Origin: a virus
Taxonomy: Duplodnaviria; Heunggongvirae; Uroviricota; Caudoviricetes
Direction: 5' to 3' (one strand)
Virus record (IMG/VR): IMGVR_UViG_2548876935_000015
DNA length: 8,491 bases
Positions 1,927 to 2,954 of this stretch are shown piece after piece. The translations under genes and the position numbers were made by a program. Every line of letters starts with the position of its first letter. The first letter of the stretch is position 1. The notes under the pieces were generated by a model. That model saw nothing but the letters and a program-made list of their open reading frames with translations, did not search any database and was not told the origin of the DNA.

Positions 1927-2424
1927 CTACATCTGATATTTTTTATCTCTTAAAGATTCATAAATCCGTTGACAAGTCACTCCTGCGATGTAGCGTTTGT
2001 CAGCAATTTCAGCATAAAGCTGAGCTTCTGCTGCAATATCTCCGAGCATGTTGGTGAGCATTCCTTCGGCGGCTTTGGTTGTTTTGCCTCTGACGGCAGC
2101 GGCAAGATTTGCGGTATGCTGCGCTGCGTCAAGGCGTATGGCATATTTTGTTGCTTCGGCACGCAGCTGGTTAACACTATCAGACAGATCAGCAGCCCTG
2201 GCAGAAATTTCAGCGGCTTTCTGTTGTGCATCTTTAACAGCCTCATCACGGGATATAGTTCGCCCCTGTTCAATTATTCGAGCAGCAAATTGGACATTTA
2301 CCTCTTGAGATAATTCGGCTGCATCACGCTCCGCCCATTTTTTTTGCCATCCTCTGTCGCTCCAGACATTACCTACGACAAATCCTACCAACACGAGCAA
2401 AATCACCGTGAATATCTGATTCAC
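1927..2424 (-). CDS. rzpQ: Rz-like i-spanin (inner-membrane spanin subunit), 165 aa
   Basis: N-terminal transmembrane segment ([15 protein letters not shown]) followed by a long coiled-coil-like, Ala/Gln/Arg-rich periplasmic domain. It sits directly downstream of the lysozyme. The start is GTG at 2422-2424, overlapping the lysozyme-frame TGA (GTGA). Confidence 0.75.
1977..2231 (-). CDS. rzoQ: Rz1-like o-spanin lipoprotein embedded in the +1 frame of Rz (84 aa)
   Basis: ORF entirely nested in Rz in another frame. Translation [23 protein letters not shown]... has a signal peptide with lipobox LTSC followed by a proline-rich mature region ([32 protein letters not shown]), the hallmark of Rz1. 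Start chosen at the ATG at 2229-2231; an alternative ATG is at 2244-2246. Confidence 0.7.
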
Positions 2425-2954
2425 TGTTCTATCCCCCAGCAGGTTAATGCACTCTCCTGGTCACGACGAATAACCTGACCGTAACAATTATTTGAACGAA
2501 TGCGGCAATCACGTCCACCGTCCTTTATCCACCAGCGAATCGCCTCTCATGCGCCTTTACGATCACCGGCATTAAGCCGCTTATAAAACGTCGACGGAAA
2601 ACACTTACCAGGGCCAATGTTATAGGGACAGAATGACGCGATACCGGCTTTCTGTGGCTCGGTCAGTGGAACTTTTATATTGCGCTCCACCCATGCCAGC
2701 GCCTTATCCCGCTCAATGGCGTTAACCTGGGCGCATTTTTCCTTCGACAGTTTCATTCCCGGAATAACAGGTTTACCGTCCACCATCGTTGCTCCCCGAC
2801 AGATGGTCCATATGCCGGAGCCATCGCGGTATGCAGTGGTGTGATTCCCCTCTTTTTCATCCAGAAACTGATCGAGAATGTCAGGGGCAGGAGCACTGGC
2901 GGCAATCAGTGCCAGAACAGCGGCCGACAGGCTGTATCTGATTTTTACGTTCAT
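2421..2954 (-). pseudogene. rrrQ: Phage lysozyme R (T4-lysozyme-like, SAR-type N-terminus) interrupted by an in-frame TGA; intact ORF is 2547-2954 (135 aa)
   Basis: N-terminal 135 aa has an Ala-rich weakly hydrophobic SAR-like segment (LSAAVLALIAASAPAP) and the E-x8-D-x5-T catalytic spacing (EGNHTTAYRDGSGIWT). After the TGA at 2547-2549 the same frame stays open for 41 codons ([41 protein letters not shown]) and ends at the TGA overlapping the Rz GTG start, giving a 177-codon lysozyme-length gene if read through. Confidence 0.75.

Follow-up and report, generated by a model that had tools for sequence, protein, structure and literature searches.

An in-frame TGA at codon 136 interrupts the rrrQ-type endolysin gene of a Qin-like prophage remnant in one Escherichia coli lineage

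In a Qin-like prophage remnant carried by one lineage of E. coli, a single C-to-A substitution has turned the codon for an invariant cysteine of the endolysin gene rrrQ, Cys136 (TGC), into an opal TGA codon. We consider it very likely that this is a very recent pseudogenizing nonsense mutation in an already crippled prophage and that it reflects neutral decay. Translation would stop after residue 135, so that the SAR segment and the E35/D44/T50 catalytic triad are kept while the final fifth of the lysozyme domain is missing from the product, a region with 16 invariant residues, three of the predicted helices, and half of the eight invariant cysteines. The lysis cassette of this prophage, which is without Q and without its immunity and replication regions, was probably silent already, and loss of the endolysin would then amount to a cryptic prophage decaying neutrally. 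Nonsense mutations that hit the lysis genes of cryptic prophages are ordinary events of a kind already known, and no new mechanism is involved.

The interrupted frame and its intact counterpart

The window analyzed here is a stretch of 8,491 nt, and all positions refer to it. Translation of positions 2421-2954 on the minus strand bears out the reading frame proposed in the initial annotation: from an ATG at 2954, 135 sense codons lead to a TGA at 2549..2547, after which 41 further sense codons follow in the same frame before the native TGA stop at 2423..2421. The gene is thus 534 nt long with 177 sense positions (135 + 1 + 41). Its 5' part (2547..2954, minus strand) holds the SAR segment, the triad, and positions 2-100 of the 125-position PF00959 profile; the premature opal codon is codon 136 (2547..2549, minus strand), identified by allele comparison; and the in-frame 3' remnant, which reads EAIRWW...CWGIEQ and includes the native stop (2421..2546, minus strand), matches the intact allele exactly and accounts for the final 25 profile positions together with Cys150, Cys157, and Cys172. 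As had also been annotated, the frame ends where it overlaps the spanin gene, the native stop sharing the sequence GTGA with the GTG start (2424) of the 165-amino-acid (aa) rzpQ open reading frame (1927-2424, minus strand). An open run of 41 codons is expected by chance with a frequency of about 0.14 [(61/64)^41], which is weak evidence on its own, and the case therefore rests on homology.

Comparison with the intact gene of strain REL606 reveals one difference in 534 nt, at gene position 408, where codon 136 is TGA rather than TGC. The changed base is window position 2547, a T on the plus strand where the intact allele has G, which corresponds to a C-to-A change on the gene strand. The same match of 533 of 534 nt is found in at least about 30 other genomes among the matches listed, CFSAN004176 and ATCC 8739 among them. 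The 41 codons of the 3' remnant are 100% identical to the intact allele, whose protein is WP_001101173.1 in both REL606 and CFSAN004176. The earlier guess that a cysteine TGY codon had become TGA was therefore correct, and the accompanying view that a single nonsense substitution had struck a gene that is not an old decayed one is supported, since the gene is otherwise unchanged.

The intact allele is RrrQ (YdfQ) of the Qin cryptic prophage (WP_001101173.1), with which our gene agrees in identity, synteny, and 533 of 534 nt; the two differ in that codon 136 is TGA here and TGC there, giving a product of 135 aa instead of 177 aa. Restoring Cys136 also gives a protein with 100% identity to the endolysins encoded by Escherichia phages 2H10 (NC_049950) and PhiR63_1 (PV340573), in both of which a spanin gene comes next. 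In these phage records the gene is uninterrupted, whereas here it is interrupted and lies in a deleted prophage remnant. Because the 2H10 and PhiR63_1 records were deposited as phages, we take the 177-aa form to be a working enzyme.

The whole window matches contig AIAQ01000221.1 of NCBI assembly GCA_000446365.2 at 100% identity. Relative to CFSAN004176, the closest complete genome and the one used for comparison, it differs only by four single nucleotide polymorphisms (SNPs) and one deletion, with three SNPs in window positions 1-6173 and one in 6172-8491. The SNP at 1214 is a Thr/Ala difference in ynfQ at which the window has the common allele; that at 2320 is synonymous, lies in rzpQ, and is private to the TGA-bearing lineage; that at 2547 is the nonsense change in rrrQ; and that at 7288 is synonymous in yfdQ. 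The holin gene, the ydfR-like gene, an antisense 86-aa open reading frame, and the RzpQ protein are unchanged. A single substitution with no subsequent decay in the gene indicates a recent mutation, and the alignments suggest that the nonsense change is very recent, one of few recent mutations and free of secondary decay. The two lineage-private mutations of the window, the synonymous one at 2320 and the nonsense one at 2547, lie 227 bp apart. On reading the sequence, no new signal created by the substitution on the opposite strand was apparent.

Endolysin features and the C-terminal tail

The restored 177-aa protein matches PF00959 (Phage_lysozyme) with 86.4 bits over profile positions 2-125 of 125, against a score cutoff of 22.3 bits, and the actual 135-aa product still scores 67.2 bits over positions 2-100 only. 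The gene is thus a member of the PF00959/GH24 family, and its encoded product is incomplete. In sequence, the protein can be aligned with endolysins whose structures are solved, namely that of phage FAHEc1 (7m5i), R21 (3hde/3hdf), and RrrD of DLP12 (4zpu). In an AlphaFold model built on a 96%-identical homolog (pLDDT, 82.3), the predicted fold matches R21, RrrD, and P1 Lyz and is T4-lysozyme-like, with a Foldseek probability of 1.00 against 7m5i, 3hde, 4zpu, 1xjt, and T4 lysozyme. R21 (3HDE/3HDF) and RrrD (4ZPU) therefore have a GH24 fold in common with this endolysin (Foldseek, 1.00; TM score, about 0.7), and all share the E35/D44/T50 numbering, a Cys-free Ala/Ser-rich N-terminal segment, a cysteine at the position of Cys136, and a holin partner of the phage 21 type. 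They differ in that identity is only about 27 to 30% and in a 7-residue insertion near residues 151-157 in the RrrQ group, which coincides with the low-confidence part of the model.

The N-terminal part carries the features expected of a SAR endolysin. A putative SAR segment, recognized by composition and hydropathy, spans residues 7-24 (2883..2936, minus strand; YSLSAAVLALIAASAPAP), of which 10 of 18 are Ala or Ser and none is Cys, with K4 and R6 upstream; its mean Kyte-Doolittle value is at most 1.75, or weakly hydrophobic. The first cysteine of the protein is C52, so the segment is Cys-free, as in the R21 type and not the P1 Lyz type that relies on disulfide isomerization. An ASA sequence is followed here by Pro, and a proline in this place disfavors cleavage by signal peptidase I. 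Downstream, the catalytic triad motif E35-X8-D44-X5-T50 (R21 numbering; 2805..2852, minus strand) is kept in the truncated product, and the 101 homologs show no variation at E35 and D44 and almost none at T50. The partner expected for such an endolysin is present as well, in that essQ matches PF04971 ("Bacteriophage P21 holin S") with 116 bits. The SAR-type label given in the initial annotation thus fits at the level of sequence on all counts (the Ala/Ser-rich Cys-free segment, the basic residues, and the pinholin-type partner), and by these features we assign the gene as an rrrQ-type SAR endolysin of family GH24 whose partners are a holin of the phage 21 type and Rz/Rz1 spanins.

The stop falls on a residue that the family does not vary. 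In an alignment of 101 homologs with 77 to 96% identity, Cys136 is invariant (101/101), as are the other seven cysteines (C52, C74, C109, C118, C150, C157, and C172), and in the motif KGACDQLRRW it aligns with a cysteine in R21 (3hde/3hdf) and RrrD (4zpu); the suggestion that codon 136 specifies a conserved cysteine therefore holds. Invariant positions make up 16 of 42 from residue 136 onward and 31 of 135 before it, and by this measure the tail appears more constrained than the body of the endolysin. The stop removes PF00959 profile positions 101-125 (20% of the domain) and four of the eight invariant cysteines, and the helices predicted at 132-144, 148-153, and 164-171 lie at or beyond it. 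From this conservation and domain coverage, we infer that the 135-aa product is most likely misfolded or inactive. The literature was also searched for work on SAR endolysin cysteines and disulfides, and nothing that deals specifically with Cys136 was found. The eight invariant cysteines of the RrrQ-type lysozyme in the 101 homologs compare with four visible in the aligned region of R21 and RrrD, which suggests that the RrrQ type may be a disulfide-rich subfamily of SAR endolysins.

Natural termination at codon 136 was ruled out as an account of the shorter frame. Nearly all of the 120 homologs listed in a search of 5.8 billion proteins are 174 to 182 aa long, so intact relatives do not end here, and the downstream codons do not lack similarity to lysozyme C termini, being 100% identical to the intact allele and holding the 16 invariant residues. 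Other 135-aa database entries are partial proteins at contig ends. One comes from a contig of ENA ERZ27269454 (locus L005, 6001-6405) that ends at gene position 405, and another from a contig of GCA_050520425.1 (P0134, locus L067, 3001-3404) that ends at gene position 404; neither is the TGA allele. The contigs of these two unrelated assemblies thus break 3 or 4 bases before the TGA site, and a repeat or mosaic boundary among coresident prophages is a likely cause. More generally, 135-aa "partial" proteins in databases can imitate the TGA allele when contigs end near codon 136. The 90% protein cluster that contains this endolysin also holds a 169-aa Shigella boydii form, of the same allele and diverging after residue 167, and a 101-aa Shigella sonnei form, which may be independent truncated alleles or partials.

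Lysis cassette and prophage context

The holin and the spanins of the cassette are intact. The class II (phage 21 S-type) holin gene essQ (3832..4047, minus strand; 71 aa; PF04971, 116 bits) is the same as in CFSAN004176. Between holin and endolysin lies a ydfR-like DUF1327 gene (3276..3848, minus strand), assigned by profile match. Its open reading frame is 183 to 190 aa long, and RefSeq marks it as incomplete in related genomes. Overlapping its 3' end is an 86-aa open reading frame on the plus strand (3068-3328; hypothetical protein WP_001557934.1) for which no Pfam match was found. On the other side of the endolysin, rzpQ (1927..2424, minus strand) encodes an intact 165-aa i-spanin of the DUF2514 family; it starts at the GTG that overlaps the endolysin stop and is preceded, 7 nt upstream, by a Shine-Dalgarno sequence of its own, GGGGGA. 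Within it, in another frame, is an open rzoQ-like o-spanin reading frame of 84 aa from MHNRK (1977..2231, minus strand), with a putative lipobox, LTSC, read from the sequence. In other strains, the RefSeq order at this locus is essQ-ydfR-rrrQ-rzpQ, with cspI, ynfN, and gnsB lying to one side and cspB and cspF to the other. Gene content and order identify the locus as the lysis region of a Qin-like lambdoid prophage.

Genome comparison with CFSAN004176 places a deletion junction at 6173..6174, with a 2-bp AG microhomology, at which 9,843 bp are missing (about 2093425-2103267 of NZ_CP014583.1). The deletion is seen in the sequenced genome; the short TGA-bearing contigs end before the 6173/6174 junction. 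The missing segment takes with it ydfT (the Q antiterminator), ymfK (a LexA-family repressor), and ymfT (cro-like), along with genes for DUF968, KilA-N, RusA, a DNA methylase, yfdN, a helix-turn-helix (HTH) protein, ash, and ymfL, so that the lost 9.8 kb includes replication and recombination genes of the prophage. Since the Q antiterminator and the region just downstream of it are gone, the lysis cassette is unlikely to be transcribed late from its own promoter, and from lambdoid biology we infer that the cassette was probably already silent. An IS66-family element breaks the small terminase gene of this prophage in CFSAN004176, which indicates that the ancestral prophage was probably already defective.

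These lesions bear on the initial proposal that the prophage had recently lost lysis competence. A recent, probably inactivating hit did occur, and in this respect the proposal stands; the prophage, however, also lacks 9.8 kb containing Q, the repressor, and replication genes, and given these larger lesions the loss of competence cannot be attributed to base 2547 alone. In MG1655, deletion of rrrQ has no measurable phenotype in peptidoglycan integrity or vesicles, unlike deletion of rrrD (PMC12287860). The larger prophage lesions, the lack of a K-12 rrrQ phenotype, and the possible further truncations in Shigella together point to neutral decay.

Other signals in the window are minor. A promoter and terminator scan of 1800-4400 found promoter-like sites at no higher frequency than in shuffled controls, with none relevant to the TGA. 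An Rfam match to the small RNA STnc100 (RF02076) at 6217-6439 on the plus strand scores 46.5 bits against a gathering score of 47; it adjoins the deletion junction on the right, upstream of yfdP, and a second, weak match of 22 bits lies between yfdQ and yfdR (7819-7998, plus strand). Full-length cspA-type thermoregulator leaders (RF01766) occur at 4737-5176 and 1305-1721, both on the minus strand, with 159 and 110 bits, upstream of cspB and cspI, cold-shock genes that the prophage carries.

Occurrence of the TGA allele and alternative readings

Among 5,426 complete E. coli genomes, none carries the full gene at 100% identity (best match, 99.8%), and none contains an exact 71-nt probe centered on the TGA, for which the best matches are 70 of 71 nt and 749 of the genomes have a match. 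A degenerate exact scan (TGN) of metagenome contigs recovered 57 with these flanks, all carrying TGC and none TGA, and an exact TGA-pattern scan of GTDB species-representative genomes gave no matches. By exact look-up, the 135-aa product was found in NCBI assembly GCA_000446365.2 and in the Logan assemblies of SRR32813998, SRR32814004, and ERR181300, the TGA-bearing contig of SRR32813998 being seen in seven samples. The Logan contigs are 99.9 to 100% identical to the window. Those of SRR32813998 and ERR181300 also carry the synonymous SNP at 2320, which is absent from 62 other loci compared; the contig of SRR32814004 is too short to reach it. Assemblies from independent read sets and the linked SNP show that the TGA is genuine and belongs to one clone-like lineage: the allele is real and is confined to that lineage. 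Another contig of GCA_000446365.2, AIAQ01000055, carries a fliC-H25 gene identical to that of enterohemorrhagic E. coli (EHEC) O145:H25 strains (PMC4441469).

A leaky stop was the other possibility raised at the outset. Near-cognate Trp-tRNA would read the UGA at a low rate and yield some Trp136 endolysin from an attenuated gene. UGA is the leakiest stop in E. coli, and the 41 codons downstream are intact. Readthrough figures from K-12 are raised by the weak RF2 variant of that strain and may not carry over to the TGA-bearing strain. In a K-12 reporter, where Trp-tRNA competes with RF2, UGA readthrough is about 2% at 37°C and 4% at 25°C (PMC10570021), and there are reports of bacterial in-frame stops kept by purifying selection (PMC7918605). 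The intact tail, however, is explained by recency, there being no other substitution in the gene, and readthrough would place a bulky Trp within a predicted helix at a position where Cys is invariant in 101 homologs. No stimulatory structure lies 3' of the stop (z = +0.37), and with the Q antiterminator lost, transcription is probably low. Nor does the allele, limited to one lineage, show signs of long-term maintenance of the kind expected of a programmed stop: its TGA context is absent from the 5,426 complete genomes and the 57 metagenome contigs. The TGA was found in no contigs other than near-identical ones with a private SNP in common, with too little divergence for dN/dS. Like the stops described by Belinky et al. 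in 2021 (PMC7918605), this is an isolated in-frame TGA, the gene being intact apart from it; unlike them, it gives no sign of post-stop conservation, the allele being too young for dN/dS. We found no specific support for a leaky stop and regard it as very unlikely. Trace amounts of full-length Trp136 protein made by readthrough are possible and unlikely to matter.

A more novel reading would have the opal codon act, in this H25 E. coli lineage, as an attenuator or switch, giving either trace Trp-readthrough endolysin or a stable 135-aa membrane-tethered fragment that interferes with other systems. Were the former true, trace endolysin might serve, for example, stress-induced vesiculation or altruistic lysis; were the latter true, the fragment would act on the SAR endolysin and pinholin systems of coresident or infecting lambdoid phages. 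We hold this to be very unlikely.

It is highly improbable that the TGA is a sequencing or assembly error for a true C (TGC). The stop does hinge on one base, and no complete genome has it. Against this, the TGA is present in an NCBI assembly and in read sets of at least two other projects (ERR181300 and SRR328139xx/SRR328140xx), both contigs that extend far enough show it together with the private SNP at 2320, and the change is a substitution and not a homopolymer indel. The occurrence in several independent assemblies thus contradicts the concern, voiced in the initial annotation, that the base might be erroneous.

We think it just as improbable that selection is involved, whether through a role of the 135-aa fragment, such as interference with the SAR endolysins or pinholins of other prophages, or through selected loss of a toxic lysis gene. 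The product does keep its membrane segment and catalytic triad, and the possible further truncations in Shigella and E. coli would be compatible with repeated loss. There is no evidence of renewed truncation at codon 136, however, where the other 135-aa entries are contig-end partials; the allele is found in one lineage only; loss of Q makes expression doubtful; and neutral decay accounts for all observations.

Least probable of all, and rejected here, is decoding of the UGA as selenocysteine. E. coli has the selenocysteine machinery, and the UGA does replace a Cys codon. Insertion, as far as one source describes it, needs a SECIS hairpin directly 3' of the UGA (PMC3834832), whereas the 65 nt from the UGA onward fold at -13.1 kcal/mol, no better than shuffled sequence (129 of 200 shuffles reach as good a value; z = +0.37), an Rfam scan downstream of the UGA found no family at an E value of ≤1, and TGC alleles share the downstream sequence exactly, so that nothing has evolved for recoding.

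The nonsense mutation in a decaying prophage, our preferred reading, has small importance beyond correct annotation, under which this rrrQ copy should be marked as a pseudogene, with its nonsense codon at Cys136, in a remnant without Q and the immunity region. It does provide a clean, dated case of the first step in lysis-gene decay, in which a single hit has left holin and spanins intact. The TGA together with the SNP at 2320 could also mark a lineage of isolates related to EHEC O145:H25-like strains.
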